A DNA stretch of 44,844 nucleotides, counting the filler, from Jimgerdemannia flammicorona (Eukaryota): the NCBI GenBank assembly GCA_003990765.1. It is 2 parts of 2 records of this genome, joined end to end, with 100 filler letters (N's around TTAATTAATTAA, not from the genome) between each part and the next. Parts side by side here need not be neighbours in the genome. Positions count along the whole stretch, not along the records: positions 1 to 22,377 come from RBNJ01001292.1; positions 22,478 to 44,844 come from RBNJ01001293.1. The stretch is one strand, 5' to 3'. A program made the translations under genes and the position numbers. The notes beneath the pieces are model-generated. The model was not told the origin of the DNA. It searched no databases and saw nothing but the letters and a program-made list of their open reading frames with translations. Each line of letters opens with the position of its first letter. Position 1 is the first letter of the stretch. This document shows, piece by piece, positions 1 to 44,844 of this stretch.

Positions 1-1871
1 TTTTTTGCCACCAAATCCGGGTGAATTGTCCCAAAGTCCCAAAGCTTCCCGGACGTCCGACAATCGATAAAGAAAAAAAATCACTTCGGTACGTTCTCTT
101 GAAATCTTATAGAATTATCCTATCTGCGAGGAAGTATATACGTAAAGATGTCCATTCGCGTGGTGGAGGATTGGAAAGAGTGTAGGTGGGTATGGTTAGT
201 TGGAAGTTCGCGAAGGGGCCGTTAATTGTATGATCAAAAGGGATGAGTGAGAAAGGTTCTTCAGTTGCTGAGTTACTAAGTAGCCGTAGTATATGAAACC
301 GAGACCCTATGGAGCTAAACGGGTTATGGTTCTGCCTACGGATGTACGCAGCGCTGAAACTGGCGTATGGGACAGAAACCGAGACTGAGAGATGGGTTGT
401 GAGGATTGCATAAGGTTGATTTCAGCTTGAACTTTGCTCATTATAAGAAATGTTCGTGCTCGAGTTCCATCAACGTCGTCCTGTTTCCTATTTTTAGTAA
501 CAAGGAAGGATAAAAAAGCTTTTATCTATTAGCGATCAATCAGCGCAAAATTTCAACGGCGGTTCTTGCCATTGTTTTGTTATAGGTCGACGCATGTATA
601 TGTTTATCAGGAACCACAACTGATTGGTCTAGGTCTTGTGTTTCAAGGATGTAATTTCTATGCCATTTTCAATCCACCATCATCGCTTTCAGAACTTCTT
701 TGCACTTGGGGAATTGGAAGAGCATCCGCCAAAAGCGGTTCCCGACGCTGTGCGGCCGTTTTTTTTTTTTTTAACTATTGGCGGAAACTCAATTATTTCC
801 ACCATGAGAGCAAAAAAATATAGAAGCCCCTAAATCTGCGGTGCATAAAGTGTTCAATGTGGATCTGTTTTCACTTTCATGTTTGTAAATACATTACACA
901 CTGGTGCACCTTCCACAATCGGATTTTTAAATGGCAGACGTATAAACTCTCTAGTCTCGCAAAGCCCAATGTATTAGTGGGCTCACTAGTATTGCAGGCT
1001 GAATAGGGCACATTGTCTCCGACGACCAGGACAAGACGGCGGGTTTTCACAAGGGATTGAAATATTGCGACGTTTATCCGATGGGCCACTTGTTCGACGT
1101 CTCCCAATACGCGGAGTGAAAGGTGTAGATGTGGCTATCCAAAGTTTGTCATTTGCAGTTCTTGGACGAGAACGCCAAGGCATCTATCTGGCATACAATC
1201 ATAGCAAACGCAATTATATCGGTGTTCGATACGTATACCTGGTGTTCCAAACGGTTGAAAACGTTGGATGTATGCCAATGATAATCCCATATAATGACAA
1301 CTTGCAGTGTGTAATAAGAGAGTTTATTTCACACCGGTTCTTTTTCTCCAACACAAACCATCTCCACATCCATCCTTTTACCAGGAACCCCACACCTCTA
1401 CCTCCATCTCCACCATCCACAAATGAGCATGGGAGCACAAAATTTTCTTCCAAATCCCTCGCCTCCCTCTTCCCCAGCTTCCTCCATATCCCCTCGAGCC
1501 TCCTTCCGCATCTCCTTTTCAAGCCTCCTCTTAGAAAATGGATTCGACTTAGCACAATCAAGCTCACTCTTGCCAGCCCGCAGCCCACAAATAATATTCT
1601 TTTACACGTAGCATCACACGCACCTTCCCCACCTGAATCCGACGTTCGGTGCTGGCAGTACTTGTCAAACATTGCCGCGTCGGACTCGAACCGTTCTGTC
1701 ACTCGGTGCCACCACCGCGCATCAAGCGCACCACCCGCCGTATCGCTGGGAGTGCCATAGGTCTCGCGTGCGGAATAAGTTTTGAGTGGTGTTGGTGGAC
1801 TCCCAGATGCGCGATTGAGAAAGGTGATTGAGTCTAGAACTTGGTAGGTCATAGGATCGATTTTGTTGATA

Positions 1872-4255
1872 GAGGTAAAATCAAAAAGATGAGACCAGTT
1901 TTTGACATGTCAGAATTGAAATGCAAGCTGCGCCACATTGGTTCATTTTTAGGCCTGGTATTTACAATCATGTGTTGCTCTGCCACTTATCTTCCACCCT
2001 GCTAACATGCAACTCTCTGCAATGAATGATGCTATAATTAAATAAGATGGAAGTCCTCTTACCAGAATTGAGTATATTATCCTAATCAATGTCTGGTGAT
2101 ACTTAAATAAGTATAAAGTAGTCTACATAACTCATATCACTACCAAAGGCCACAGACTGCTTGCCTTGATCACTGGTATTGGGGAAAATACTGCACAGAA
2201 GGCCTTGGCCTTCAAAAAGAAGAATGAGCTACTGCTGAGTACATATAAATGATATTGATAGTACTTGAAATAAATTGAATTAAATTAAATTTATCTCTAA
2301 TTCAATTTAATTTAAAATATTTAAATCAAATTAAGGGTCAATTTGATTCAATTCAATTCAAATTGAGGTCCAATTCAATTTGAAGTTCAATTTGAACTTA
2401 ATTTTTCAAAATTCAATAATATAATCAAAATATATTCAAATTTAATAAATTTTAGCTTATTCAATATGCTTTATAATAGAGAATCTAGTATAATAAAAAA
2501 TATTAAATTTGGATATATTTCTATTGAGTTATTATATTTTGAATTTGGGATAAATATTTCAAATTAAATTAGATTCCAATTTGATTTGATTGAATTGAAT
2601 TAGGTCTCAATTTGATATAAATAACCCTAAATTTAATTCAATTCAAATTGATTCAATTTTTTTTAGGAGCACTAGATATTAGTTACAAAAAAAAAAAAAG
2701 CAAATCAATAATAAGTATACTGTAGCTATTAGAGTCCTTATTCTCAAAAAGAATATAAAGAGTACTCTGGTTACTACCTATCTGCTCAAAGAGTCTCTTT
2801 GCTAATACTATAGCTTTAAGATAGCTATTGTGATATTGTATAGAGATCTCTATCTGATGGGCTACCACTTTGAAAAAAGTATCTGTCAGAATATTCTCTA
2901 TTATATATAAGTTAACATCAACTATTATAACCTTTATATTAAGTGTTAGCTGAAAAATCTCAATACCAACTACCTTCCTAAGCTCCTGGAAGTCTTTCTG
3001 AACAAGTTATACTACTATCTTAATTACTATTTATAGAAGACCTAGATGGTGTCTGAAAGAGCCACCAATGAGAGGAGCTGATAACTAATGCTTATAATTT
3101 TTGAAGTATTTGTCATCTACTGCCAAAATGACTATCTCAATATATAGTTTATCAAGAAGAGTATTCTCATCTGATCAATCAAGAGAGGAGTAAGAGGAGT
3201 ACTATAAGAAAAGAGAGAGCAAGATCATAGTAGGTCAGTGAACAAAGAAGAACTTCATAAGTATATTATTTGAATATCTGTTTAAAAGCCTCTGCAATAT
3301 GCTCAAGAAGGATTTCAGATCATACTATATCTATATAGATAGAACTAAGTATTATATCTATATAAAGAACTCATACTATAAAGATTGCTAAGGTGTATAA
3401 GTAATTTATATATATAAATATCTCTATTTTTACTGACTCAATTCTAGGAAAGAAGCTGACAAAGGTAGAAATGATTATATATATCAAAACATTGAACTAT
3501 CCTATATATTATCTTATATAAGATTATAAGTACTATAGATATATTATCATAAAACTCTACTATATTACTATGAACTTCAGTCTATTGAGCAGATGTGAAG
3601 TATTATTAAGAATTAAATTACTATATACTCAAACTCTCAAGAAATAAAAGTAATACTTATGAACTAACTGCTATTACTATTTACTACTATCAAGCCTATA
3701 ACCCTCATTAATATCTGAAAAAAGACTGTAAAGATTAATGAAAACTATCAAAGATCTATAAAAGAGAAAATAAGATAAGATTCAACTTTAATACTGAGGA
3801 ATCTAATACTAAGAAATTGAACAGTAAAAAGAGCACAGAAGACAATAATAATAAGTAGAGTGTAATGGGGCAGATAAATCAATTAAAACATATCATAGTG
3901 ATGATAAAGAGTATAGAGATAACAGAACATGTAAGTAATCAGAATAAGAGTGATGAGATGAGAGTGGTGAGAATAATGATTACTAGGAGTGGAGACAGCT
4001 AGAGGTTCTAAACTAATAGAAACCATAGTATAAAATAGAAAGTATATAGAACAAAATTTAGTTTCTTGATGAAAAAATTGTTTTTCTATAAAACAATTCA
4101 TCTTCTACTAGATTTTGGAAACAAGACTATTCTATCTATCCCAGGCTTTCTGAATAGCAACTCTATGAAGTCAAACTTGAATAAAGTCAATAAGATATTT
4201 GGTTGTTGAAATATTTATGTATTTACCATGGTCCTATCTTTTTTGATTTTACCTC
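1872..4255 (+). mobile_element. Decayed Tc1/mariner (IS630-Tc1-mariner)-like TIR DNA transposon with TA target-site duplication
   Basis: Imperfect ~26-bp TIRs: TA|gaggtaaaatcaaaaagatgagacca (1870-1897) and tggtcctatcttttttgattttacctc|TA (4229-4257). Removing the element plus one TA restores the acceptor ctag| and the reading frame FR-INKIDPMTY of the host gene. A decayed + frame at ~2008-2240 (GSPLTRIE..INVW*Y..LITGIGENTAQKAL) resembles a transposase HTH N-terminus. No DDE motif recognised. Confidence 0.8.
2259..2674. mobile_element. AT-rich MITE (hAT-like) nested in the Tc1-like element
   Basis: Inverted termini tagtacttgaaataaattgaat.. and ..attcaattttttttaggagcacta. Near-identical 8-bp flanks gatattga (2251-2258) and gatattag (2675-2682). 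The interior is built of aattg/caatt/attca pentamer repeats. Confidence 0.65.
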
Positions 4256-6319
4256 TACTAGCCAGAGGGAGAGTGAGTGTATTTAGCATTATTAATAAAG
4301 TCAGATAAAGTAATAAAGTCAGATAAAGTAAAGTACAGATGGAAAAGGGTAACGAATGGGGTCAACGTACCGGAATGCCGGATTAGTATTCAATCTCGGA
4401 ACGACGGATGGCGCGAGATACCCGACAGAGATGGTATTATCTACAGATGGCCTGAACTCATCTGCATAAAAGAGCTCGAACTCGTCGCCGTAGAACTGGG
4501 CGGCAATGACGTGGGGTGACTATCGTTGCACAATCTGGCAGTAGAAGTGCGCGAAGTTGTGGAAGCAGTCGCTCGAGCCGGGCGGAACGTCTAAAAGTGG
4601 GAGGGTGGGTAAGTGAGTGTGGCGCAATAAGATGGGTTTTGAAGGGAGAGAGTGCATGTACGTACGGGCGACGATCCAAACGCCTAGTGTGTGAAAAGGA
4701 AAAAGATAATAAGAGCTATTGACATAGCTGCAGATGCCAGACATGCAACGAATAAAATAACCACGTACATGCGCAGGATTGAGAACCGAGAAAACCATAC
4801 CTGCAATTGAGCCACAAGAAAGGCGAAGATCCCTAAGCAATAAATCCGATAAATTATGTCATCATCGATATCCACCAAAATAATTTCTATCACCTTATCT
4901 TCTCTCCACTCCCATTATAGCCACCAAACCTACCATTCGGATCCAGTTCGCTAGCCTTCTCATAAAACCACCAGTCCTCGATGTAACACAAGTTAGTGTT
5001 GAGCGCAATGACTTTGAGCCCCGACACGGGCGAGTGGCGTACGACCCGTAGTCGGCGGCCTCGAGGACGGCGCCACCCGCAAGCCAGGTAGCTCGCTCCA
5101 GCTATTGGCTAGCGTTTGGTACACCCACTCGCCGTCGTGCGATTGTGATTTGGTGGAAAGAGATTTACGGGCGCTATGTCTGGGTAGTGGTGCAAGTAAG
5201 CAGGTGGATTAATAGGGCGGTTACCCGAAGAGAATGTTTGGAAAGAGGTTGATATGGTGTGAATGACCCGCAGGGGAGACACAAAGTACCGTGGTTACCG
5301 ACCGCCGGAAAGACCTTTGTGATGTTAGAGGTCGCGAAGTGCTTGGAGATTGCGGTGTAAATGGTCGTGAGCGTCGTAGTCACAGAGGCCTGGTTCGCAA
5401 GCCAGACGTCTTGCGGGGCGATGTCGCTAGGTGATTGCCAATCTGATCTCTTCGGTGTAAAAAACAAATGTTGACCTACCCCGTGGTGATGGCGAAGTCG
5501 ATGATGGGCTCAATCTTGGAAATAGCGTCGAGCAGGTTTTCCAGGAGTAAGGCAGGCGTGTCGCTTAGGTGGTTAGAGATGGGAAGAAAAGGGAGGGTTA
5601 GGTAGAAGAGCAGATGGGACGGATCAAATATGCGTTCGAGTTCAGCAAGGGCTCACCTGAAATAGTCGCCCCATTTGAGTGCCGGCCTACTGGGCGTCGT
5701 CTGATTCTCGTAGTCGCGGCAACAGATCGGGAACTGGCAGTTCGCTTCGGTGCCGGGCTGCGCGTCGCGGGGAACGAGGATTCTGAATCTCTGACTCCAA
5801 AAACCAAATAAGGAAGCACGCGCAAGTATCTGTGCTAACTCAAAATCGCAGCGAAATCAACCCACTTACTGCATACAGTGGGTCGACGTGAATGTCCGAC
5901 AGGTGCAACACGGTCTTGACCTTTCCGCTCACGGCCGGGGCGGACGTGTTAGCAGGCCGGGGTTTGGGAAAAGTGACGCTGTAGTTGGGAACGGCGGGGT
6001 AGGGGCAAAAACCGCCCATGGTGGCCCACATCAGCCTGCCCTCGTAGCCTGGTTGGTTGGCGATTTTGGGAAGGTGGGGCGCAGGGGAGGTAGCCATTAC
6101 GTGGGAAAAAATGAGTGTGGGAAGGTGAGTGGTGAGTTTTAAATCAGGATTTTTTTTTTTTTTTTTTTTTGACGTGCATGTGAGAGAGGTGAGCGGGGCT
6201 CACGACTATGCCCATCAGGGTCTTTGAGGATTTGCACACCGCCTTCAGTAGGGAGATGAAGCCTTCCTCGGAGATTTCGGCGATGGTTTGCGCCAGCTTT
6301 GATGAAACCTGGGTTACGA

Positions 6320-6394
6320 CTAAGCATCGCTTGGTTCCGGACCATTTCCTGCCATCCTGAAAGCGTTGGCATGCTTTATTTGTCTTAAACATGG
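6320..6394. repeat. Dispersed ~75-85 bp repeat, copy 1, at the 5' truncation point of the sphingomyelinase pseudogene
   Basis: ctaagcatcgcttggttccggacc..ctgccatcctgaaagcgttggc.tgctttatttgtcttaaa.atgg recurs in the same orientation at 20712-20798. The ORF track shows FKTNKA(C/R)QRFQDGR at both sites. Confidence 0.9.
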
Positions 6395-7496
6395 TATATA
6401 CATGCGAATTTTCATCTGTCTAAGACATATATGTATGAGACATTTCATGTAAACCCTAGTAATAAAAGAATGTCTCAACTCCTATGACCTCTCTTTCCTA
6501 TGACCTCTCTTTTTTTTGTATTATTATGAATGACAACCAAATCCAACAGCAATGTGACTGTGCCAAATTCCTTCGACACGTTACTGAAGCTGTTGCAGTC
6601 AGCCTCCGCCCTCCTCTGCCAGATCCAGAGATTGCAAATGGATGTGAGTGCTCCTCTGATGATGGGCAGATGATCCCTCAAACCTCAGAGACAACCCTGA
6701 TGGAATAGACCTCCACATGATGTCACTGATAGTGGTGATGAGAAATTCCTTGACAAGGGCTATTAGGTATTACAACACTCCTTTCATATTTACTGATGTG
6801 ATTCCACAGGACTGGATTGAGATCCATCTCATTTTCACTAGTCTCTAAAAACTCCTCTATTGTAATCCTGAGCCAAGATATGGGGTTTTTTACACTCTCA
6901 TCATTGATAAGACCTTTACTGATAATTTCTCTAAGGCTATTAAGAAAGCAGACAAGGTTCTTACTGAGATCTAATAAGTAATTTATAATACTCTCTATCT
7001 GGTTACTATTATTCTTTATACTGTCAAACTATGTCTGAATAGTATAGATCTCTATCATAGACTAATTTATGATAATAACATTTCTTCTCTAATAGAAAAA
7101 CTCTAAGACTCTCTCTAAATCAGCTTTTATGAGACTGAATACATTCAGATCTATCACTGTACAGAGCTTGTCAGAGCTGCTAAATAGTTCTCTGCTCTTA
7201 TCTCTGCTTACCATACTATGGTCTCTAGCTTTAGTTTAATAGTAATCTGTTTAGTACTAACTTCATCTGTCATTTCAATAATAATACTAAATATTAAAAG
7301 TACTATCTTATTATATATAATATAGTCAAATATAGCTACAATAATAATACTTTCTACTATAGTTTAACTTTCTCTAAAGATCTCAGTTAGAAAAATAAAA
7401 TTTAGAGCAACTACTATTCTAATTATTATTGATAATACTTTAGTTCCAGAAATCACACTCTAAGTACAAATAGTTAAAAAGGTTTCTAAGCTCTAT

Positions 7497-10400
7497 ATCT
7501 TTGTACTTGTATATATTGATGACATCTTGATCTTCAGTAGCACTGAAGAAGAACACCTCAAGCATATTGAACAAGTCCTCAAGATCCTTCATAAGAACAA
7601 GCTCTATACAAAGCTCAAGAAATGTGAAATTTTCAAGGATCAAGTTGAATATCTTGGACATATTGTATCAGCCAAAGGAATTCAAGTAGACCCAAGGAAA
7701 ATATAAGCCATTGAACAGTGGCCTGTACTAGCAAACCTCACTGAACTCAGATCCTTCCTTGGTCTGGCTAGATATTACCATCAATTTGTTAAGAACTTTT
7801 CTGGTATCACAGAATCTTTAACAAACCTCCTGTGAAAGGAACCCAACTCTGACCTCTATGTCTCCTATATCTGGAATGCTTTCTGTCAATAAGCTTTTCA
7901 AGAACTCAAGAACTGCCTGACCCATGCACCTGTTCTTAGAAACATGGACCCAAACTTGAAGTTCATAGTCACTACAGATGTATCTAACTTTGCCATTAAT
8001 GCAGTCATTTCTCAAGATGATGGTCAAGGACACTGACCTATTGCCTTTAAGTCAAGAAAATTGTCCCCAGCTAAACAAAAGCTGGCTACTCACAAAAAGA
8101 AACTCCTGGCAATTATGTATACTCTCAAGACCTGGTGACACTACCTAGAAGGAGTTAAGTTTGACATGATCACTGATCACAGATCCCTTCAGTACATCAA
8201 CACTCAACCAACCCTTTCTCACCAACAAGCCAAGTGGAGTCAACTACTTCAAACCTTTACCCCAAACATCATCTATAAGTCTGGCAAAACTCTAATTGTA
8301 TCAGATGTACTTTCAAGAAGACCTAATCTTGCTGCAATTTTACAAGTCACCATGGCACCTGAATTCCTCAATCAGATCAAGAAGGCATATGAACAAGACT
8401 CTCTAGTTCTACAAAGGAACACCAAGGAATTCAAGAAAAAGTATATCATCAAAGACAACCTCATGTACTATCAAGACAAAGTATATATTTCTGCTAACTC
8501 TAAACTATGGTATAAGATTCTTCATGAACATTATGACTCCCCACTAGCTGGTTACCTTGGAACTGAGAAGACCATCAAGAATATCCAATGAGATTACTAC
8601 TGGTCAAGCATGCTCAAGGAACTCAAGGAGTATGTCTAAAGCTGCAATCTTTGTCAAAGAAACAAGTCAAGCAACCAAGCACTCACTAGTCTTCTGCAAC
8701 CTCTACCAATTCCAACCAAGAAGTTCAAACAAGTCACAATGGACTTCATTGTACAACTCCCACGAACCAAAACAGGCTATGATGCTATTGTTGTATTTGT
8801 GGACTGTCTCATCAAGATTACAATTGCCAAGCCAACTATAACCAATACCACTGCCCCAGAAATTGCAAGGATCTTCTTCAAGACTATCTTCCACCATTAT
8901 GGACTTCCCTGAGTAATTATCAGTGACCATGATCCCAAGTTCACAAGCCACTTCTGGCAAGCACTCTTCAAGACTCTTGGAATCCAAATCACTATGTCCA
9001 CTGCCTTCCATCCTCAAACTGATGGACAGACTGAGTGAATGAACAAAATACTTGAACAAATGCTCAGAAACTATATGTCTTATGAGTAAGATGATTGGGA
9101 CCACTATCTGACCTATACTAAGTTCACCTACAACAATGCTACCTGATCATTGACTGGTCTTTCCCCATTTCAGCTACTTCATGGTCAAAACCCTGAGACC
9201 CCTGCAAGTCTAGTCTCATTCCAGCAATCCAGTCACACACAAGTCTCCACAGCCCAGAACCTTATTAACAAAATGGATTCCCTTCTCAAGATCACCACTA
9301 TAAATCTACAAAAGGCTCAGCAATATCAAGCTAAGTATATAGATAAGAAGCAGTGAGATGTTATATACAACATTGGTGATATGGTTCTACTCAAAGCCAA
9401 TAACATCAAGGCTTAATTTCAAGTCAACTGCCAGTTAGCCAAATTTTAGCCTAAGTATCTTGAACCCTTCAAGATCACTAAGCAAGTCTCCACCTGGTCT
9501 TACCACCTCAACTTGCCAACAATCATGTATATACACCCAGTATTTCATATGTCACAACTCAAGGCCTGGAACCAGTTACCCCCATACCCTGGCTGAATTC
9601 CAATACCATAAGCACCAGTGATAGTTGAAGACCACATTGAGTATAAAGTTGAGAAAATCTTAGACAAATAAGTCTGGTACTGTTACACAGAATACCAAAT
9701 AAAGTGGATGGGTTATCCTAAATATGATGCTACCTAGGAACCTGCCGCCAATCTCAAGAACTCTCAAGACCTCATCTAAGAGTTTGAGCAAAAAGGAACT
9801 CATTGACTGCTCATGAGGTTCTTTCCTTGGATAGTAGATGACATACTGTGCTGATCAGACACATTAAGCACTGGGGCACTCTAAAGGATATAGTATCAGA
9901 AATAAGAGATATAAGAGAACCCTATAAATCCTACAACCAATGAGGTTTGAACCAGTTCTCATCTGATCAAGATAATACTTTGACCCTTGTCTTATACAAG
10001 GATGGCCAGTCCTTGCCAATGAGCCGACATATTTTGTTTGAGGTTTCTTTTAGTCTTATTGTTTATTATATATAACTTTGAGAATTCAACAAGCATGTTG
10101 ATTCTTAAGAAGAGGAAGATGTAACATTTTAGCATAGTTTACTTCTTTTCTTTATCTTTTCTTAATATTCTACAACCTTCTGGTACTTTCCAAATACTTA
10201 GAAATCCTTTCTTGGCACCAAGCATCCACTAGTACTTATTTAGCTAGTTACTGAATATTCTGGAAACTTGTAAAACTTTATTTGTTATCATTTGTCATCT
10301 TTGCTGAGAACTTTCCTCTTGGTATTTTCCTTTGATTTCTCAGATCCTTCCAGATCTTTCTTTCAGATCTTCTATAAATATCTCCTTTGTTCTTATGAAT

Positions 10401-10523
10401 AAAGTCTTAGAATATTTCCTCTTAGAAATCCTTCGAGAACACTTGAATCCTTAAGTATCTCTTCAAGTTACTTAGAACCACCAGAACTAGTTGCTTCCTT
10501 ATTTAGAAACTAGAACCATTACA
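7497..10523 (+). mobile_element. 5'-truncated Ty3/gypsy chromovirus (RT-RNaseH-integrase-chromodomain, PPT, 3' LTR), pseudogenised
   Basis: FVLVYIDDILIFS..YLGHIVS (RT); TTDVSNFAI..ELLAI..ITDHRSL (RNase H); H..C..C and [26 protein letters not shown] (integrase); EYKVEKILD..YQIKWMGYP..DAT*EP (chromodomain, ~9640-9790). Many in-frame stops. Confidence 0.95.
10120..10523 (+). repeat. 3' LTR of the Ty3 chromovirus
   Basis: Starts tgtaac directly after the purine tract aagaagaggaaga (10107-10119) and ends ttaca. Contains tataaata (~10373) and aataaa (~10398). Confidence 0.75.
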
Positions 10524-16038: not shown

Positions 16039-16094
16039 ATACAATAACCGAGCCGCCCAGTACCTAGGCTCGGTACCTAGGCTCGGTATTGTAT
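16039..16094. repeat. 56-bp hairpin with internal tandem duplication
   Basis: atacaataaccgagcc..ggctcggtattgtat are inverted arms. The middle holds two tandem copies of gtacctaggctcg. Confidence 0.7.
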
Positions 16095-16436
16095 TATCGC
16101 ATATGGTCTAGCCCTGGGTCTGATGTCACTTTAGGTCGTCGCAACAGGGACAAAAACGGTAAATGTATTGGGAACGCAATTTGGTTAGACTGCTCAAGTG
16201 GGGAAACATTCCCCAGGGTCTGGAACACTGGTCTGGGCCGTTTTCACTCTTCTGGGAGTAGTGTTGCTTCTAGAATCCAGAAACTGGTTCGTGTGTACAC
16301 AATCCTGTATATACTTAGTCCGATGCTATTGTTTCATGTCACTCCTAACCATGTTCCACTGTGTTTACAAACAATCCTGCGTTCTAGTAATCGTTGGTAG
16401 GTGCGCATGTCACGTAGGGCAACCACCGTTGTGGTC

Positions 16437-16437
<1 letters not shown>

Positions 16438-27977: not shown

Positions 27978-28008
27978 TAGGAATAATGTTAAATAGCAAT
28001 TCCATCCT

Positions 28009-30036: not shown

Positions 30037-30254
30037 ATTGATAGTACCTTTCCTCCTAGTTGTGTCAAAAAACCATTGCTTGAAGTTTTGTATAACATGA
30101 ATTGTACAGGAGAAAGGTGTTTTTTGAATCTTATGGTCTTTAATCATGAAGGAGTAGGGGGAGGAGAGCCCCCTAGGGGTATTGGATAGGAGTGGGCTCA
30201 ATGTATTTATATGGGATAGAATGGTGTATTAATAAAGAAAGGAGTCCAAGTAAC

Positions 30255-30288
<34 letters not shown>

Positions 30289-32988: not shown

Positions 32989-34358
32989 ATGTCCTGTGAC
33001 CAGCAGGCTATCTGTCTGGACCATTCTCTAAGGGATATGGTACCAGCAACTACTCATCTATGAGACTTTCAAAGCCAGAGGAGTTCGAACTGTCAACTGA
33101 TTGATCAAGATCAGAATCAGGCTCTTGCTCTATATAAAGAAAGCAACCCTTCACCATCATGCCATAATACATAGGGAAGATGCCAGCCCATAAATACCAC
33201 TTTTTGACCCCTTATCAGAGGTTATGGGATCAGCAAATTTTTCAGAACTGGACCAATGAATAAGGATATTCAAGAAGATTCTTATTTAGGAGAAAGATTT
33301 AATAGTGATCTCAGAATGATGACATCAGTATAAGAGACAGCCTTTTCCTACAAGCCACCAGATTGGAGCACAAGAAGATCATATGGCATACAAGATGATC
33401 AATGATGACCAACTGTGAGTCATTGTGACCACAGTTCAGGTATCTTGAGAAATATAAAAGAAGGATCAAGGAACTATAGTAGCAGCAACCAATAAGACCC
33501 ACCAATTCCAAAATAGCTTAAAGACTTATCACAAATGAAATGCCTGCTGCTTATCAAATCTCAAGGTCAAGAAACCACCAAGACACCTCAGTTGAAGAAA
33601 GAATGTTCCAAGATATCAGAAGAGCCATGAGGACCTGCACAAGAAAGACTCCTAGTATCAACCTGGGTACTGCAGATCCTTATCACTTCATCCTCTACTG
33701 TTGTGAAATGGATACAAGGATCACTATTACTATTGAATACCTCCAAATATGACAGGAGTACAAAATAGAAAACCTCCTCTGCCAGGAGTTCCCACAGGCC
33801 AGTCCTCAAGAGTTACAAGATGCTACTCCTATAGATATATGTGAAGCAAGAATAGCTAAGAAGATCCATCAAATCTTCAGGCATGCACTATAGTCAATCC
33901 CCAACTTAGAGTATGTTAGAGTCTCAGACTTCAGAGATCTATCAGCCTGCTATATCAATGCACTAGAAGCCAGGGTGGCTACAGAAGCCCAGTCCACTCT
34001 CACCCTCAATAGTGATGAAGTAGAAGACTTCTGGCATCCCATCCTCTAGGACAACCCAGATCAATTCCTGCAAGGATTGATCTCAGTATTCCAAGGCCCA
34101 AGTATCCAGGTTAGACCTCCCTAAGACTCCACATTTGTTCTCTATTTTATGGAAGAGAACCTCATAGATTGGAGAGCCCCCAATTTCCCCACTGAACATG
34201 ATGATGTCATCAGCAATGACATCATCTCATGTGACATATGTGAAATATGCAACCTATATGATGAGATGGATGAGATGTTCATGGATCTTATCTCCTTTGA
34301 AGACATCCTGACCTCTGATGAAGATGAAGTCTCTATAGTCTTGAATATTCTGCTCTAA
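32989..34358 (+). pseudogene. Decayed accessory ORF downstream of integrase in Ty3 element 2, unknown function
   Basis: Track ORFs 33540-33752 and 34149-34358 share one frame. The sequence between and upstream reads as protein-like text broken by isolated TGA/TAG/TAA codons. The candidate ATG at 32989 is in another frame, implying a frameshift. Confidence 0.55.
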
Positions 34359-34648
34359 GTCTCTTGGTTATACTGAATTATATCAGTACTCTTTTCTTGT
34401 ATACAGCTATTCCTCTACTGGCATTCTGATGTGACTCAGAATTATTCCAGCACTATTTTCCTGTATCACCAAAATTATACCAGCATCCTGAACCTGTGCA
34501 ACCATCAGTGCTGACCCTGGAACTTAGCAGCTTTCCATGTCCTGGTATTTTATTTTAGTTATTGGAATTTATATTTAGCTTTATATCTTAGCAACCATTG
34601 AATTATATTTTGTATAAATACCCCTCTTATTTCCTCTAAAATAAAGTC

Positions 34649-35297
34649 AGTTCCTCTCAGTACAATACATACAATTTCTTACAAGCAATCTAAGAGATAA
34701 TAAGACAGTTTAAAGATAAGAAGTTTGAGGACTATAAGATCTTGAGAAGGCACTCCAATAAGAACTTACTTATAACAAACTTGAGTTAGTCTAAGAGATA
34801 CACCTTGAAGAGAATTTGATATATTTAAAGAACTCACTGCCTACTACATGACAATATGTATAATATAGTCCCCTTAGTTTTAGTTTACTTATACTCAATT
34901 CCATACAAACAATCTAAGAGATAACAAGACAGTTTAAAGATAAGAAGTTTGAGGACTATAAGACCTTGGGAAGGCACTCTAATAAGAACTTATTTATAAC
35001 AAACTTGTAGTTAGTCTAAGAGATACACCTTGAAGAGAATCTGATGTATTTGAAGGACTCAGTGTCTACTACATGATAATATGTATAATATAGTTCCTCT
35101 TAGTGCAATATATACAATTCCTTGCAAGCAATCTAAAGAGATAACAAGACAGTTTAAAGATAAAAAGTTTGAGAACTATAAGACCTTGGGAAGGCACTCC
35201 AATAAGAACTTACTTATAACAAACTTGAGTTAATCTAAGAGATACACCTTGAAGAGAATCTAATGTATTTGAAGGACTCAGTGACTACTACATAACA
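34649..35297 (+). repeat. Three tandem ~220-bp copies of the distal LTR region
   Basis: Units start agtt/cc(c/t)ct.ag at ~34649, ~34867 and ~35092. Each contains caatctaagagataa.aagacagtttaaagat..gagatacaccttgaagagaat..ctactacat.a.a. Confidence 0.93.
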
Positions 35298-36417
35298 ATA
35301 TATATCCAACTAGTAAACATTTTAATCAGATATATATGTGATTTTGAAAATAATTTTATTTATAAATTAGGAACTAATTTAGTAAGTAATCAGAAAGTAA
35401 TATATATATTTCAATCTATTTTTTATTTTTTTATAGATAATGCTTACTGTTCCTAAGAATATATATATAAAACTTCTAAAGTATTACTACAAGATGATAC
35501 TATTATATAGTATAGCTTTGGCCTTAGATCTATATATTAATATGTATTATTTTTGTCATAAGTAATAGAAAAAATTCTTAATTGATGAATGGAAGAATCA
35601 GATGGAACATATCTGGGAAAAGAAGTATAAGCTTGTTAATGCTGTTATTATACTCTCAATATTCTATGATGTTGATGATTTTATCAACTCAATATATAAG
35701 AAGAAACAGTGTTTCAATATATATGATGAGCTTGAATAGTGAGTATTATTGTTATGTTTTTTAGTTGGCTTGGTTGATTTTAACTCATATTTCTCTATTT
35801 CAGTTATTTGTTAGAAAATTCAGCTAATTCTCATATAGATATACTAGGTTGGTGGTTGTAAAATCAGTCAGTATTTCTAATCTTTCATAAATGACTCATG
35901 ATTATCTTGCTAATTTAGCAACATCTATTCTATCTGAATGTATTTTTTCTATTGCTGGTGAGCTGATGACTAAATGTCAAAACAGCTTATATATAAATAC
36001 AATTTGTGCATATATATGTCTGGATTCTTAGTAGTCTTCAGATATTTATAACTTCCAATTGCTCTGAATATTATCCAAATATTATCTGAATTATTTTTTT
36101 AGGGCAGAGTTCAGAGGGTCAGATTCAGGGTCAGGTTCAAGAGTTAGGTTTAGGGTTGGGTTCAGGGGTTGGATTCAGGGTTGAGTTTAGGGGTTGGGTT
36201 AGAGACAGGTAATATATTTTTCTGGATTGAGTTAAAGATAGATGATATATATTTCTGAGTTGGGTTAAAGACATGTGATGTATAATTCTGGGTCAGGTTA
36301 AAGATACATGATATATAATTCTGAGTTAGGTTAAAGAAGGGTGATGTCTAATTCTGGGTTGATTATTTTATAGATTGAGTTTTGAGTTAATTGAGTCAGA
36401 TTTATAGAATATTACTG
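35298..36417 (+). mobile_element. hAT transposon 3' fragment (C-terminal dimerisation domain, subterminal repeats, terminus ..CTG)
   Basis: DILGWW..DYLA..ATS..SE..FSIAG..NSL..NTI.A..CLDS (~35838-36030). Hexamer and ~35-bp gggttaaaga..tgatatataattct subterminal arrays. Inverted homolog of 40107-41295. Confidence 0.88.
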
Positions 36418-39400
36418 ATATCTCAAAAAGGCACCAACTACCAAGAAATCAAGATTATCTCTGCTATTCAGATGAAGAGACTCTCTTATAAAAAGGAGAA
36501 TACATATTTCATCTGTATTATATAAAAAGTTCCTAAAGTCTCAAGTAGCCCAATTCTACTAGAAGCTTAGGAACTATTTGGGAAATTCTAAGATATATTC
36601 TAGGAACCTAGAGGACTTCCACCAAAGTACCAAATCTAACATAGAATTGATCTTATTCCAGAATCTAAATCTCCATATAAGAGTATCTACTAACTAGCCC
36701 AATCTAAACTCAAGATTTTTAAAAATAAGTTGACCAAACTATTGACCTAAAGATATATTGAACCCAGCTGTTCTTCATTTGGAGCCTCCATTCTGTTTAT
36801 CAAGAAGAAGAATGGTACTCTGCAAATATATATTGACTATAGAGCTCTCAATATGATCACTATTAAGAACTGGTATATCTTACCTAAGATTGATGAGTTA
36901 TTATACCAGATATTCAAGGCCAAGATTTTTTCTCTACTGGACCTGTGAAATGATTATCACCAGATTCTCATTGATGAGTAGGATATTGAAAAGACAGCTT
37001 TCTAAATGTGGTTTGGATACTACCAGTTCTAAGTCATGTTCTTTGGTTTGACCAATATACTAGCAATATTCCAATATCTAATAAATAACATCTTTAGATT
37101 ACTACTTAACATTTGTATCCTCTACAGTAAAATAATATAACTATACTATACCTACCTCAGACAGGTACTGACCCTTCTGTGAGAACACCAGCTCTATACC
37201 AAGATGAGTAAGTATAAGTTCTATTAAGATCAGATCAAGTATCTAGGATATATTATCTCTACTAAAGAAATCACTATAGACCCCCAAAATGTATCAGCTC
37301 TTCAGAATATTTCTATCCCTACTACCCTCAAGCTACTCTAGTGATTCCTGGGTATTACAGAATATTACTGAAGTTTCATCTAAGGATACTCTACTATTAC
37401 AGCTCTGCTGACCAGCCTGACCCACAATGGAGTGAACATTAAGACCAAATGGACCCCTAAGTATACTCAGACTATAGACCATCTCAAGAGACTTCTTAAT
37501 GAGATCTGTGCTAATTGCACCAGACTCTACCAGACCATTTACTTTGACTACTGATGTCTCTAATATTGTCATTAAGGTAGTACTCAGCTAAGAAGACTGT
37601 CCAGTGACCTATCTTTCTCAAAAGTTCAAGCTAGCTAAGACCCAATATACTACCTATAAGAAGGAACTTCTGGCCATTGTCATTGCACTCCAGAAATGGT
37701 ACCATTTCCTCTATTGATAACTATTCTGGCCTATACTGATCACTATGCCCTACAGTATATCTATACTTAGTCCATACTGACCCATAGACAAGCTCATTCA
37801 CTGGAAGTCATTGCCAACTTTGATATAGAAATCAAGTATATCCTAGACAAAATCAACTATGTAGCTGATAGTTTCTCAAGATATATAGAAGATAAACTTG
37901 TCTTCATAGTTAAGATAATTGGAGACCTCACTCAGATTATCTAGGATGGCTATCAAAAAGATAGCCCCCTGGTAAAATTCCTTCAATTCTGCCAAGACCC
38001 AGAGGCCAAGGTCTCAGAAGCTATGAAAAGAATGTCCAAGAGATTCACATACTATAATAGACTCATCTATAGAGACTATAACAGAGTGGTAGTACCTAAT
38101 AATAATACTATATGGCTCAAGATTATATAGAAACTCTATAATATACCTGCTGCTGGACATTTTGATTTTGAAAAGACCTACAATCTCCTCTCAAGAGAGT
38201 TCTACTAGCTATAGATAACCAAGAATATCAAAGACTTTATAGCCTAATGTGAGATATACCAAAGATTCAAGAGCAGTAACAAGCTACCCACAGAACTCCT
38301 ATAATTTCTGTCCATCCCTAGCTATAACTAGAATCAGATTACTATAGACTTTATTGTCCAGCTCCCTAAGACTAAGGCAGGATGGGATACCATTGTAGTA
38401 TTTGTAGACTACCTGAGTTAACAAGCCCATTTTGTACCCATTAAGACCACTGCTATAGTCTCTGAGATTGCTGAGATCTTTCTCAATTAAGTGTTCAGAC
38501 TATATAGCATACCTAGTACCATTATATCTGACCAAAATGCCAAGTTCATGAGCAACTTCTGGAAGGCATTCTTCTCTCTTTATGATACTAAACTGAAGTT
38601 CTCCACTACCTACCACCCCCAGGCTAATGGTCAGACCAAGTGTACTAACAGGACTCTCAAGCAGATGCTTAGTATCTTTGCTGTTATAAGTAAAATGATT
38701 AGAACAAGTACCTAGTCTATTCTGAGTTTGCCTACAATAACAGTCAGTAAACTTTTATAAAGAAGACTCCATTCTTTCTAAACTATGGTCAATACTCAAG
38801 AACCCTGAGTACCACTGTAAAATCAGCAATCTCAGTAGTCCAAGATTTAGCCAAGACCATCTCTAAGCTTATTCAAATAACAAGAGATGCTCTCATAGAA
38901 ACACAGAACTACCAGACTATGTATGCTAATGTAAAGTAGAGAGAAGTCTCCTACAATATTGGCAATATGGTCATACTCAGAACAGACCATCTTCACCCTA
39001 ATATCCTAGCCTAGCAATTATCCAAGAATGTGAAAAAAGTCAGCAAAGTCAACTACAAGCTATAACTCTCTCTCAATATTCAAGTTCACCCAGTATTCTA
39101 TATCAATCAATTGATAGACTACTATATAAATCCATTTTCTGAGTATATAGTTCCACCACTATTCCCAATTAGGATCAATTATTATAAGGAATTTGAAATC
39201 AAGAAAGTGCTTAACCATAAGGCCTGCAAATATACTAAAACAGTCAAGCAGTTTTTCTCATCAAGTAGAAGAGTTACCCTACCCATGATGCTACCTGGAA
39301 AAAAGAAGATATACTGGTAAATATATATGAAGCTCTTTAGAACTATATGAAAACACTTATCCCCCAGCAAAAAAAGGAACTACAGCTCTAAAAATGGTGA

Positions 39401-40106
39401 GCATATAGCAAATATAGTGATGATATATACTTACCTAGGATATATAATAATGAATATTACAAGAAATAAAATACTATAATTAGCCAATGAGACAAAAGGT
39501 TATTCTATTGAAGAACTCCTCCAGACCTCCCATATATAGTTAAATCAGAAGGACCATACAAAATTAACACAATATATAGTGATTATTCTGGTATGATATA
39601 ATACTTATCAGTAACTACAGAAAGTTATCTGATTGGGTTTAAACCCCCAGTCTTCAGTCTAGAGAATAATATCTTAATAGGGAACCAACTCTCTATCTAA
39701 AGTCAAAAGAAAGAAATTTTAAACTGGTGAAATCTAGTAATTTCCATATGACTAGCACATGCTCTGCTTATAGCAATAAGTCACACATTCTCCTAGGAAT
39801 GTGATTGAAATGATATCATAGTAGACCAGCAAATAAGTATAAATATCTAGGGTAAGAATATACTATAACCCTTATTCCCTTTTCTTCTCTCCAAAGAAAA
39901 CACAACTCAAGAATACCTGCTATCTACCACCAAACTACCCACCATAGCCAGCCCCTCTCAAGCCAGATTGACCACCTCTTTGGATATATCCAAGTTACTA
40001 TCTAAGGAAGAAACCACTGCTCTGAGGCTCTTAATCTCACTAGCCAGAATCTAAAACACTATGTTCTTATCTACTACAAAGTTATAGAGAGAGCCTATCT
40101 TGCTAC
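36418..40106 (+). mobile_element. Ty3/gypsy chromovirus element 3, heavily decayed (RT-RH-IN-chromodomain and start of putative 3' LTR)
   Basis: FGASILFIKKKNGTL..IDYRALN; LPKIDELL; MFFGLTN; LTTDVSN; KELLAIV; TDHYAL; AGHFDFEKT; DFIVQLPKT; SDQNAKF..STTYHPQANGQTK; EFEIKKVLNH..SYPTHDATW (~39185-39300). Confidence 0.9.
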
Positions 40107-42520
40107 CAGTAGTACTCTATAAATCTGACTCAATTAATCCAAAACCTGACTTATAAAACAGCCAACCTGGAATTAGATATCACTCATCTTTAATCCAACC
40201 CAGAATTATATATCACCCAACTTTAACCTGACTCAGAATTATGCATCACCTATCTTTAACCTGATCTAGAATTATATATCACATATCTTTAATCTAACCT
40301 AGAAATATATATCATCTGTCTTTAACCTGACTTAGAATTATTCATCACCCATCTTTAACCTGCCTTGGAAATATACATTATTTATCTTTAACCCAACTCC
40401 TGAACCTGACCCTAAATCCAACCCCTGAATCCAACTCTGATTCCAATCTCTAAACCTGATCCTAAGCCTAACCCTCTGAACTCTGTCCTGAAAAAATAAT
40501 TCAGATAATATTTAGATAATATTCAGAGCAATTGGAATTGAAAAATATCTAAAGACCAATAAGAATCCAGATACATGCATGTACAAATTGTATTTATATA
40601 TAAGCTGTTTTAATGTTCAGTCACTAGCTCACCAGTAATAGAAAAAATAGATTCAGATAGAACAGATGTCACTGAAATAGTAAGATAATCATAAGCTATT
40701 TGTGAAATATTAGGATATACTAACTGATTTTACCACCACCAATTCAGTACATCTATATAAGAATTAGCTAAATTCTCTAACAAATAACTAAAATAGAGAA
40801 ATATGAGTAAAAATCAACCAAGCCAACTAAAAAACATAACAATAACACCCACTATTTAAGCTTATCATCTATATCAATATACTGTTTCTTCTCATATATT
40901 GAGTTGATGAAATCATCAGCATCATGAGATATTGAAGATATAATAACAACATTAACAGGCTTATACTCTCTTTTCCAGATATATTCTATCTGATTCTTCT
41001 ATTCATCAAGTATAGATTTTTTCCATTGCTTATGATGAAAATAATATATATTGATATATGAATCTAAGACCAAAGCTTTGCTATATAATGGTGTTATCTT
41101 ACAGTAATACTTTAGAAGTTTTATACATATATTCTCAGTAGTGATAAGCATTATCTATAAAAAAATAAAAAATAAATTGAAATATATATATATTACTTTT
41201 CAATTACTTACTAAATTAGTTCCTAATTCACAAATAAAATTATTTTCAAAATCACATATATATCTGATTAAAATGTTCACTAGTTCAATATATATCAGTA
41301 ACATTTTTGAGGTAATTATATAGCCAATTAAATAGTAGTATAACAGCTGCTATTGTAGGACACTTCAAAGTTGACATTATAGTTATTACTTTGATAAAAG
41401 ACTTGAGAAATCAGCAAATCAATTCAAATTATTGCCATATATCTTTAGATATATTACTCATTTACTTATCCATAGCACACAATATATCCAAACCCTATTT
41501 AGATATAATATCAATTTATTTAGTACCAAAATACATCTAAATTATATTCTAAAATCTATACAAATAGATTCAAAATCTTATCTTATAAATCTCCAGAGTA
41601 CATATTAATATTTTATATATAGAACTCTATCTCATTGTAATATCTAAGATAGGATTCACAGACTTTTGCCAATTATACTTATCATTACACTGAATTTTTG
41701 ATCTTCTTTATCAACTCCCATAGCTTTCCAATGGGCTCACTAAGAGAACCAAGAGCATCATGAATAATGAGATTCAATATATAACTGAAACAACAAACAT
41801 GATTAAGCAGATGATGGAGATTCTCAAACAGAGTATCATTATTACTAGTATTGTCTAATATAACAGTAATAATTTAATTGTCACTAGGCAACAAATCATC
41901 TATTACCAGCTCTAGGCTCTTTATAAGATTGGCACCCATGTGTGATATTTTGCTGATATTCACAAAGTCTAAGATAATGTCATGCATCTTCCAATTACTA
42001 TCAATCTAATGAGCTGCTATTTTAAGAAAGACCTTAATGTTAATGTTCAACATCCAACTATTAAGTATAAGTGATATCTTCAACTTGAGCCCTGTTAGTC
42101 TTACTTTTACTTAAGTCTGCAATGGTTCAAATTTTATTTGAATAACTCATAAAATTATATCAGCTGATGGAAGGGTCAGATTAGAGCATAATATATAAAT
42201 GAGATACTTGAAGTCAGGGGTTTCAATAGTAGAGAATGGCTGATACCCAGTGATAATGAAGTTGGTAATTAACTAATAGAGATTCTCATCACTTAAAGTC
42301 TTACTAGTATGGTCCTATTTGTAATAATAAAATTTGATGAATTCCTAAGTACTTCTCAAATTTCATTCTATCTATACTTACAATATTGTCTTTCTTAGAC
42401 CAGTGAGATGCTAGAGAGATAAGAGTATGACATCATAATACTTCCAGAGATATCATTTAAGATTATTGATATTGCTATTCTTTAATATATAGCTCTAATG
42501 AACTTAAGTCAGACAGTGAT
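40107..42520 (-). mobile_element. Near full-length decayed hAT transposon, 5' end lost at a LINE insertion
   Basis: Terminus CAGTAGTACTC at 40107. Minus-strand remnants: BED-finger tail NNLK*YLWKYY (~42440-42475), QPFSTIETPDF, ISLILNSW, AAH*IDSNWK..LDF..SHMGANL, LDNTSNN..HVCCFSYILNL, LDITMR*SSIY, and the dimerisation domain at ~40560-40760. Confidence 0.88.
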
Positions 42521-42521
42521 T

Positions 42522-44260
42522 CTGATGAATGGGTACAGGGGGATTTCATTCCCCCTGGGTAGAGGAGTGTCTCAGGGAGATCTACTATTACTGATCCTAT
42601 ATATACTATCTCTGGATCCACTGTTGGATAGGATTTAGCAAAAGGTAGGAGAGTTGGACATTATAGGGGTTAATTGGAAGATGGGGCCTTTACTGATGAT
42701 ATAGTAGTTGGGCTAGGATTGGTAGAGAATATGGTGGCACTGAGAAGTGCAGTAGAGTGATATGAGGAGTACTTAAGTACAAAACTCAACTGGTATAAGC
42801 ATGAGCCTTTGGTGCTGAGAGAAGGGTTAGTAGGTGGAAATATAATTGGAATAATTATCCTAGTAGGAGAGGCTGTTTACTATCTGGGGATCTACTTCTC
42901 AGTTTATGGCTCCTTATTACTCCACTGGTGGTGGGAGCAGTGGTTGGTTGAGTGGAAGGGTATGCTCTTGAGATGGGGAGGTTATTATATATCTCTAGTT
43001 GGGAGGGTGATAGTGATGAATATATACTGACTGACAAAATTGTGGTATCTGGGATACTACTTAGACTTCCTAGTATGAGTAGTTAAAAGATTACTAAAGA
43101 TGGCCAGAACCTGGATATGGGTAGGGTGATGGAGTCAGATTGGCTGAGAGATATTGACCTTGCTGGTGAGCCAGAGAGGACTGGGTCTGGTGGACTTTGC
43201 CAAGCACCTTCATTACTTGCAGACATAGTGATTGAAGTGAGTGAGTGAGTTGAGGAGCAGAGAGTGAGTCTCTCTTATGCAGAGAGTGTGGGCAGCCCAG
43301 TTCTCCTCCCATAATATGACTGGCAACTTGTTTTCTATAGTGGCTTTGGAGGGGAGCCAAAGGATGTGCTTTAGGGAATTCTGGTAGGAAGTAGTTGATA
43401 GAGCTCACTAGATTGGCCTCCATTGATAAGAAGATGAGAGAGAGGAGAACTGAGAACCCCAGATATAGAGGTGGGACCATCTTCTATTAGGGGGAGTATT
43501 AGTGGATAACTTTTGTTTAGAAGATGGCATAGAGTATCTTCAGGAGTATAGGAGAGATCTGTGGCCTGAGGTATAGCAGGGGGTTGAAATAGGAGAGGGG
43601 TGAGATTGGAATGGTATTTGGGATTGAAGTAAGTAGTTGGCTATCTGGGTGCTCTCCAAGTTTTGGGTGTAATAGTGAAGATTGCTACAGAATAATGTAA
43701 TGTTGAATTACTAGTCAGGATACTTGGTGGAGAGTGGTACCCAGAAGTGTGAGGAGTGTCTGAATGTTAGACAGAAGTAGAAAGTGGTACAGACTCCAGA
43801 ATATTGGCTAGAGGAGTGTGAGGTATTGGGTAACTTGTGGCAGATGATTGAGGGAAGGTTAGAAATGCATCCACTAGTGCTGAGAGTGGGAGAGAGGTGG
43901 GGTGACCTCTAGAGTAGGCTGGTAGAGAGAGTGAGGTATGAGTGGTTGACTCTGGGTTAGTTGCTGGCTATTTGGATCAGGATTGCTGAATATTAGTTAT
44001 ATGTATTTGAAGAAGATCAATGGTTGATAGTAAAGGTGAGGGTGGCTAGATAGGAGTGGCTGATGGTAGATCTATTGAATGGGTGGTAGAGAGGGTAAGG
44101 TACTGGGGGGGGTCTCTGGAGGAGACTGGTAGAGACAATCTGTAGAAAGAGTAAGGAAAGAGTTTGAGTAGTAGGGGAGATAATGATATTTCAGAGAAAT
44201 GGCAATAGAGGAGAGAGAGAGTTCCTATGTAAGATTGGATAAGAGATTCATTTATATAGA
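42522..44260 (+). mobile_element. LINE copy C (5'-truncated within RT, older divergent subfamily)
   Basis: GRGVSQGD..AFTDDIVVG..KLNWYK..YYLGIYF..SLVGRVIVMN. ORF2 end ..KIG* at ~44240. Confidence 0.88.
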
Positions 44261-44261
44261 T

Positions 44262-44844
44262 ATTGGGAAAAGAGTAGAGTGTTAGCAGGGATTGGGCCAG
44301 GATCTTTGGCCAAGTGGCTGGCAGGTGACAGGGATCGGCGAGGAGTGGGACTGGGCCGGTATCTGATCTTGGAGTGCCAAGGTGCAGAGGTGGCTCCCCC
44401 CCAAGTACTGGGTGGTATGGTGGAGAATGTTGCAGAGAAATGTCATGCTGAATTTCCACACAGAGCATTTGGTAGATGGTGGACAATTTTAATGTAAGGA
44501 GTGTTATGATGTTGGGCATACTGGAGGGCATGTACAGACACCAGAACATTGGCTGGGAGAGTGTGAGGTTTTGGGGGAATTTTGGGCTGAAATAGAGAAT
44601 AGACTGGGTGTGGGGTATAGGCTGGTGGGGGAGGGGGGTCACTGGGAGGACTTGAGATCTTGGCTAGTAGGTGGGGTGGGAGATAGTTGGCTCACTGTAG
44701 GATGGGTATTAGTGGTATAGGTGGGCCTGGCGGGCCATTGGCTATTTGTATTTGAGGAGGGGTGGTGGTTGGGGCTGCATGAGAAGGTGTTGAGGTGGGA
44801 AGGGCTGTTGGGGGACCTGCTGAATGGGTGGTGGGTGGGCTGGG
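44262..44844 (+). mobile_element. LINE copy D (3' portion of ORF2, B-like subfamily), continues beyond the window
   Basis: Closely matches the reverse complement of ~24480-25050 (gggccaggatctttggccaa.tggctggcagg..) and is much closer to copy B than to adjacent copy C. Retains some CpG. Confidence 0.88.

Follow-up and report, generated by a model that had tools for sequence, protein, structure and literature searches.

The 44,844-nucleotide stretch of the Jimgerdemannia flammicorona genome analyzed here (GenBank assembly GCA_003990765.1; hereafter the window) raises the question of what process stripped its transposons of CpG and filled them with stop codons. [quoted passage not shown] The condition on the host is borne out: J. 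flammicorona is a non-ascomycete (Endogonales, Mucoromycota), and a methyltransferase gene in the window matches Jimgerdemannia and Endogone proteins. The pattern itself is real and strong, and its best interpretation is a variant of the already known decay of transposable elements (TEs) linked to methylation, in a lineage from which, as far as we found, it is unreported. Our preferred explanation, to which we give a probability of about 65%, is that heterochromatin would be methylated by DIM-2-type enzymes at CG plus CA and CC, with slow deamination following.

CpG depletion and premature stops in the window

The transposon parts of the window are as follows (strand is given where assigned; o/e, observed/expected ratio; LINE, long interspersed nuclear element).

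1932..4350: decayed AT-rich block, GC content 0.28, 0 CG; no Pfam match in any of six frames (stops translated as X)
6316..11713, plus strand: decayed DIRS-like element with inverted ends, identified by matches to family copies; a Ty3 element is inserted at about 7310-10600
8100..9806, plus strand: Ty3 pol with RNase H, integrase and chromodomain-like end, from the Pfam RT_RNaseH match, translation and 24 genomic copies
20712..20797, plus strand: solo 86-bp DIRS-like end fragment in gene-rich DNA, 96.6% identical to the end of family copy L208, 5 CG kept
22875..24217: LINE fragment, 0 CG, GC content 0.49, TpA o/e 0.79; inverted partner of 24396-25738
24396..30290, minus strand: younger LINE with endonuclease and reverse transcriptase (Pfam), 35 CG remaining; query for the 30-copy family set
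30300..44250: nested TE block with 2 CG by direct count
35298..36359, plus strand: first arm of an inverted pair, class not confirmed, from a family of 30 copies
36400..40100, plus strand: second Ty3 pol (reverse transcriptase, RNase H and integrase by Pfam, X at stops) between the arms, with TAG at 38329
40231..41295, minus strand: second arm of the pair, 84% identical to the first by pairwise alignment

CG counts in the TE blocks, compared with genic DNA, confirm the predicted loss of CpG with sharp borders. We found 0 CG in 1932-4350, 4 in 6650-11600, 0 in 22874-24230, and 2 in 30300-44250, and none over 33087-44335, where 337.6 were expected. Genic DNA (1-1900, 4353-6454, and 11714-20700) has a CpG o/e of 0.96-1.14. 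The description of the old TE bodies as rich in TpA was overstated: TpA o/e is 0.74-1.12 in TE blocks versus 0.71-0.81 in genic DNA, and just 0.79 in the LINE named as an example (22874-24230). The composite RIP index does not exceed 0.33 in any of 89 1-kb intervals and is mostly negative.

All of the stops named in the prediction are present (9036 TGA, 9087 TAA, 9735 TAG, 9777 TAA, and 38329 TAG), and the Ty3 pol at 8100..9806 has stops at 9036, 9087, 9144, 9354, 9414, 9447, 9594, 9609, 9669, 9735, and 9777. Ancestral codons were read from the 24 other genomic Ty3 copies in a comparison that covered 9036, 9087, 9735, and 9777. Those copies read CAA at 9087 in 23 of 24 cases, TGG at 9735 in 23 of 24, and CAA at 9777 in 16 of 24, with TAA in the other 8, so the stops in CpA context are real. 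At 9036, the copies carry CGA in 13 cases, CAA in 7, and a stop in 4.

Mutation spectrum across genomic copies

The spectrum of C-to-T change was measured in three polarized families. The LINE and arm-family sets each consist of the best 30 of 40 scored copies, the window's own included, and the DIRS-like set consists of 11 of 20 fetched stretches, namely, those with at least 3.2 kb aligning at 80% identity or more. All counts are copy-by-site cells, with ancestral states assigned by a column-threshold rule. Across genome-wide copies, C-to-T change ranked CpG >> CpA >= CpC >> CpT, an order that held at both ancestral-state thresholds tried.

For the LINE, the changes were 1000/9789 at CpA, 1009/12805 at CpC, and 312/10234 at CpT, with 321/2771 CG kept; A/T-to-G/C changes were 421/31773 (0.013) and transversions 0.007. 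For the arm family, the corresponding counts were 793/3174, 193/1069, and 70/2166, with 73/891 CG kept, A/T-to-G/C changes at 42/14971 (0.003), and transversions at 0.003. The DIRS-like copies gave 995/6170, 746/6796, and 113/5379, with 255/3916 CG kept and rates of 0.006 for A/T-to-G/C and 0.004 for transversions. Expressed as hazard ratios over the three families, CA/CT is 3.5-8.8, CC/CT is 2.7-6.1, and CG/CT is 35-64, while CA/CG is 0.10-0.23 and CC/CG is 0.08-0.16; the CpC rate is 0.65-0.8 of the CpA rate. Unpolarized comparison of 24 Ty3 pairs gave 0.90 for CpG, 0.231 for CpC, 0.212 for CpA, and 0.055 for CpT, with 2829 transitions versus 266 transversions. Between the two arms in the window, C/T differences occur at 57/116 CpA, 11/34 CpC, and 6/91 CpT sites (CpA versus CpT, P = 5e-12).

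The predicted CpA signature therefore stands in part: CpA lies well above CpT, and C-to-T change extends beyond CpG, but CpG dominates and CpC comes close to CpA. The signature is CpG first with CpT spared, not CpA alone. Canonical RIP shares the concentration of C:G-to-T:A transitions in repeats; CpA as the leading context and positive RIP indices, which also belong to it, were not found here.

Finer context was visible in the LINE and arm alignments, where mutation is more frequent at CCT and CAT than at CCA and CAA, and CpA preceded by a 5' T has a lower rate; this may be an enzyme's flanking preference. A plant-like CHG rule was rejected, as CAG and CTG, under the stricter threshold, did not exceed the remaining CAN and CTN. 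An APOBEC/AID-type 5' motif was likewise dropped: the main effect comes from the base on the 3' side, and among 5' contexts for CA, TpC is favored least.

Dependence on chromosomal neighborhood

The DIRS-like family was informative about where decay stops. In the window, positions 6316-7309 and 10618-11709 align to the 4.75-kb family copy L208, and the element retains some CpG at its ends and almost none in its interior. We take the element to be DIRS-like from its end structure and motifs, as Pfam gives only a reverse transcriptase (RVT_1) in a related copy. An earlier delimitation as a terminal inverted repeat DNA transposon at 6455-11713 with a 3-bp duplication was dropped, since the element begins at 6316. 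A further observation concerns an internal segment, 11416-11452, which is complementary to the left end: it has lost all CG, and the left end itself retains CG.

Across family copies, a fraction of 0.34-0.39 of CG is retained in the 100 bp next to an end and 0.05 at distances above 400 bp, whereas the combined CpA and CpC load rises from 0.05 near the ends to 0.14 beyond 400 bp. Retention at the ends follows the neighboring DNA. Thirteen ends beside CpG-rich DNA kept 41/68 CG (35/62 when the reference copy used to define the sites is left out), five next to CpG-poor DNA kept 1/25, and two intermediate ones kept 0/10 (retention versus neighbor CpG, rho 0.67, P = 0.0014, n = 20). Age is not an obvious confounder, because the interiors of full-length copies carry, by inspection, similar CpA loads (0.11-0.21) in both neighbor groups. 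Load in the arm family also drops with flank CpG (rho -0.61, n = 29), a trend to which age may contribute. There was no spread outward: at 12 ends chosen for CpG-rich DNA 400-1000 bp out, CpG o/e is 0.78-1.05 within 1 kb, so that the invasion of single-copy DNA that marks DIM-2-mediated RIP in Neurospora is missing at those ends.

Genes provide the complementary comparison. Among 20 histone loci analyzed (29 matches), seven copies, two of them intron-less, align at 88% or more to three CpG-rich source genes. Relative to their sources, these copies show C-to-T changes at 171/548 CG, 46/666 CA, 29/518 CC, and 6/598 CT sites; reverse differences, 12/2502, set a ceiling on damage to the source genes. 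Histone pseudogenes in CpG-poor DNA thus carry the signature, and the source genes do not. Some of the histone copies are of interest in themselves. The histone H3 gene on contig C830 has intron-less retrocopies 95-99% identical to it at L112 (C28274) and L114 (C549). Divergent H3 variants lie in segments of 1.6-2 kb (L115-L118, L124, and L129; e.g., C28574, C27062, C138, and C127) that are multicopy, 84-97% identical, and in part depleted of CpG; these may be H3 genes carried by a mobile element.

Canonical RIP, that is, a homology-triggered premeiotic process dependent on RID or DIM-2 and here unusual in context, acts on duplicates longer than about 400 bp at 80% identity. An HSP70 pair in gene-rich DNA, 91-92% identical over 1248 and 642 bp (about 1.9 kb), is nevertheless unmutated, with a CpG o/e of 1.03-1.12 and differences at 11/202 CA versus 12/217 CT sites. 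Neither this pair nor the histone sources behave as though long duplicates were hit irrespective of origin and place, although the HSP70 genes are one long pair under selection, and even under RIP a source allele can stay intact through selection or segregation. Protection at DIRS-like ends likewise follows the neighbor and not the edge of homology. Taken together, and with CpG content as the proxy for chromatin state, the tests favor an effect set by chromatin domain and not by sequence.

A different account would combine CG-only methylation with an overall bias of mutation toward AT, or a deficit of repair, that affects heterochromatin or neutral DNA. It draws on the rate at CpT, which is itself 2-12 times that of A/T-to-G/C change, and on the lack of a clean neutral single-copy control: we sought one among polymorphisms, euchromatic pseudogenes, paralogs, and metagenomes and obtained none. 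Two sequencing runs compared with positions 1-20000 gave short contigs and at least 5 differences in unique DNA. The metagenome scan gave no Endogonales locus among 22 loci, with identity at or below 50%, and paralogs of the window's own genes do not exceed 70% identity over long stretches. The single-copy control consequently rests on genic paralogs and composition, the genic paralogs differing at 36/337 CA versus 66/378 CT sites when pooled (polyubiquitin pair counted once). General AT bias does not explain CpA/CpT ratios of 3.5-9 and CpC/CpT ratios of 2.7-6 in four independent sets, a contrast absent from the genic paralogs, nor a (CA+TG)/(CT+AG) ratio of 0.66-0.79 in old TEs against 1.45-1.50 in intergenic DNA. 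We regard this account as very unlikely.

Strand pattern and tempo

Canonical RIP would also be expected to leave episodic, strand-biased clusters, and none were seen. The plus-strand share of CpA and CpC changes does not vary among copies of the LINE and arm families (chi-square P = 0.74 and 0.97), and same-strand clustering is absent at any distance once site and copy rates are modeled (same-minus-opposite z from -1.79 to 0.55); such a signal would, however, be smeared out by many weak rounds. A deficit of strand runs in the arm family (z = -3.56) vanished under the same modeling. In favor of canonical RIP are the almost pure C:G-to-T:A transitions that hit repeats, as in the Ty3 pairs, and the excess of CpA over CpT. 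With intact duplicates, no one-strand episodes, no flank spreading, leading CpG, and RIP indices negative or near zero, it appears highly improbable. Of the predicted repeat restriction, what survives is that C-to-T change beyond CpG is confined to TE-type domains; that it is directed by homology is not supported, given the spared HSP70 pair, the neighbor-dependent ends, and the missing bursts.

As a clock, we used transversions plus A/T-to-G/C changes, with which CpA load rises in the arm family (rho 0.70). Five arm copies have 0 transversions and 0 A/T-to-G/C changes yet have already lost 17-22 of 30 CG and 9-15% of CpA, so the C-to-T process is fast relative to background.

Methyltransferase and repair genes

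The genome holds three DIM-2-like genes, on contigs C8187 (L132), C11271 (L144), and C3657 (L133). Judged by domain and best-match scores, a DIM-2-class gene with RFTS/BAH and C5-methyltransferase domains is present: the C8187 protein has a weak RFD match, a BAH match below the cutoff, and a DNA_methylase (C5-methyltransferase) domain, and among solved structures it scores 136 bits to 9BAQ, the Neurospora DIM2 (PMC11315935), versus 92 bits to DNMT1. The closest named relatives of this protein come from Mucorales and Glomeromycotina, and one of them bears the name Dim-2. C11271 also matches DIM2 best, at 30.7 versus 22.5 bits over one exon, and the best match of C3657 is again DIM2, weakly and over one exon (E = 0.016). 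In C8187 and C11271, what we take to be motifs I, IV, and VI can be made out. As a side observation, C11271 scores best to the Mucorales/Glomeromycotina homologs, and C8187 and C3657 look like diverged extra copies.

Two further genes appear DNMT2-like, C58 with C2181 (by our own motif reading) and C1744; the latter was considered as RID or DNMT5 and rejected as DNMT2-like. No RID-like gene was found among 8 and 6 methyltransferase candidates from PF00145 and TIGR00675 searches, which were run exon by exon on a fragmented genome with no RID-specific query, and no DNMT5 was seen in the same kind of exon-wise family search, again with no DNMT5-specific query. Among the best 120 of 565 proteins retrieved as possible RID queries, one is from Basidiobolus and the others are short methyltransferases of bacterial type. 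That the candidates scored include no RID-like gene may count against canonical RIP, with the reservations that an exon-limited search could miss the gene and that RID is reported in the sister clade of arbuscular mycorrhizal fungi (AMF), in the available text of PMC8298701. Loss of a G:T glycosylase as the cause was rejected, because a TDG/MUG-like glycosylase fragment is present.

Proposed mechanism and its difficulties

Under the methylation-and-deamination reading, DIM-2-class enzymes would methylate transposon-rich heterochromatin, with CG modified heavily, CA and CC in part, and CT little. The resulting 5-methylcytosine (5mC) would turn to T by gradual deamination over long times on both strands. 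Any DNA inside such a domain, TE or gene retrocopy, would decay alike, and the mark would fade over about 200-400 bp toward gene-rich borders with no outward spread. We observe the mutation spectrum, its restriction to TE-type domains, the influence of neighborhood on it, and the three DIM-2-like genes; 5mC in CG, CA, and CC contexts, its placement by DIM-2, and passive deamination are what we infer from them. The second option of the original prediction, non-CG methylation, is thereby supported by mutation spectrum and domain confinement; a RIP-like, homology-directed CpA process is not, given that CpG mutates first, CpC is near CpA, and strand bursts and flank spread are missing.

Several points weigh against this reading. 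CpG mutates 35-64 times faster than CpT, compared with roughly 10-15 times for mammalian CpG. Together with the excess of CpT over A/T-to-G/C change described above, this leaves room for an enzymatic push, and the rate is not accounted for by loss of G:T repair, because the TDG/MUG-type fragment is there. Older LINE pairs within the window show little contrast between CpA and CpT (0.33 versus 0.27 and 0.32 versus 0.33). In the LINE family, CpA load falls with the clock (rho -0.59), which we ascribe, as a conjecture, to subfamily structure. The copies are top-scoring matches, their cells are non-independent through shared ancestry, ancestors were set by column threshold, and the genic controls are subject to selection and codon constraint. 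Finally, known DIM-2 cases behave unlike the proposal, because DIM-2-linked mutation in Zymoseptoria and Neurospora is CpA specific and departs from the methylation profile (PMC8016269 and bioRxiv 10.1101/115501, in the portions available).

These difficulties bear on an alternative, an active RID-independent mutator of heterochromatin, in which a DIM-2 paralog or partner deaminase would turn cytosine or 5mC into T, in either vegetative or sexual nuclei; it would resemble the mitotic Dim2 mutator of Zymoseptoria, except that its spectrum would be CG>CA>CC. The rate of CpA change, 8-102 times that of A/T-to-G/C, the five otherwise unchanged arm copies, the presence of DIM-2 in three copies, and the precedent for DIM-2-linked mutation all argue for it. 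Known DIM-2 mutators, on the other hand, spare CG and are CpA specific, clustering and strand bias are lacking, and the rank order is already predicted by passive decay. Sequence cannot separate the two, because a non-processive enzyme leaves the same footprint. We consider a mutator possible though unlikely, and the narrower proposal that one of the three DIM-2 paralogs is a dedicated RID-independent mutator of any heterochromatinized DNA (CG>CA>CC, with CT spared) is equally tentative.

Comparison with known systems

The closest parallels come from four systems, each described here from the accessible portions of the cited reports. Zymoseptoria tritici likewise shows TE-confined change with a DIM-2-class enzyme, in a process not tied to meiosis, and Dim2-dependent 5mC in its TEs is 43-61% at CG, 10-22% at CA, 3-8% at CC, and <0.01% at CT (PMC8016269), the order of mutation seen here. 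In that ascomycete, which has rid and dnmt5, more than 98% of C-to-T change falls at CA and CG is spared, whereas in J. flammicorona CG is hit worst and CC is near CA; a mutator of the Zymoseptoria type, acting almost solely at CpA, is not what these copies record. Tuber melanosporum shares leading CpG with CpA second, negative RIP indices, TE-coextensive methylation (like methylation induced premeiotically), a large TE-rich mycorrhizal genome, and decay ascribed to deamination (PMC4352252, PMC4165359). It differs in being an ascomycete with a RID/Masc1 gene, and neither near-total CpG erasure nor a CpC component is described in the available parts of those reports.

Phycomyces blakesleeanus is, like our host, a member of the Mucoromycota with a DIM-2 homolog, and its 5mC, almost solely in repeats, is CG led with a minor non-CG (CH) share (PMC11258239, PMC7862722): 3.4% at CG, 0.5% at CHG, and 0.9% at CHH, a CH/CG ratio resembling the mutation ratio in J. 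flammicorona (PMC11258239). Methylation was measured there and a mutational footprint is not described in the accessible text, whereas here the footprint was read and 5mC is deduced; Phycomyces also has a DNMT1-class gene, and no separate one was found here. RIP in Neurospora crassa and other Pezizomycotina resembles the present case in massive C:G-to-T:A change in repeats, the creation of stops, and CpA above CpT (PMC12543289; bioRxiv 10.1101/115501). It is homology triggered, premeiotic, CpA led, and RID dependent, with a DIM-2 branch that spreads to flanks; of these signs, homology triggering, a CpA lead, and flank spread were not seen in the tests described above, and no RID-like gene is among the candidates scored.

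A kingdom-wide survey scores J. flammicorona as "no_rip" (PMC12543289). By its available description, that survey counts only k-mers enriched >2-fold on scaffolds >50 kb and would not register CpG loss, because only enriched k-mers are counted. In the portions available, PMC13297926 lists RID for Ascomycota, PMC8298701 credits AMF with RID, and PMC7928374 mentions RIP generically only. We found no report of such decay in Endogonales in the literature searched, which did not extend to most subscription papers.

Other features of the window

The assembly comprises 231 Mb in 35,354 contigs. Two further parts of the window complete the layout.

11714..20700: CpG-rich control DNA (CpG o/e 1.14) with an RPE65 (carotenoid-oxygenase) gene and a spliced S-adenosylmethionine (SAM) methyltransferase gene, by Pfam
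22378..22477: artificial spacer of N's, seen as an N run, joining contigs C1292 (which ends at 22377) and C1293

Because two contigs are joined by this spacer, the halves of the window are perhaps not neighbors in the genome. The SAM methyltransferase gene (about 16971-18474) has GT..AG joints seen in a sequencing-run contig (run X1), and its stretch is 100% identical to a J. flammicorona protein over 36% of the query; its best named full-length relatives are Endogone proteins. At the end of contig C1292, 21790-22377 is CpG rich and T/G skewed, adjoins a CpG-free AT-rich block (21069-21805), and is possibly a very young insertion. Contig depth at about 10440-10525 exceeds 1,000 in both sequencing runs versus <12 elsewhere, which suggests an abundant repeat end or a sequence like a long terminal repeat. 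The hAT label first given to the arm pair found no Pfam support; both arms hold 33-bp and 12/13-bp tandem arrays (36116-36383 and 40134-40424).

Implications

Surveys place RIP-like C-to-T defense involving non-CG contexts in ascomycetes. What is added here are tests that separate neighborhood from homology, and the pairing-independent contrast they draw with Neurospora bears on whether DIM-2-linked C-to-T change arises by passive deamination or through an enzyme. The genome has still grown to 231 Mb, so expansion was not prevented, and our results suggest that screens based on k-mer enrichment miss such a footprint. Should a dedicated DIM-2 mutator prove true, RIP would have an early-diverging forerunner that works without pairing, and mutational defense would predate Dikarya. 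The CG>CA>CC>>CT footprint, in a genome that also carries three DIM-2-like genes, suggests that the transposons of early-diverging fungi can be eroded by DIM-2 heterochromatin on its own.

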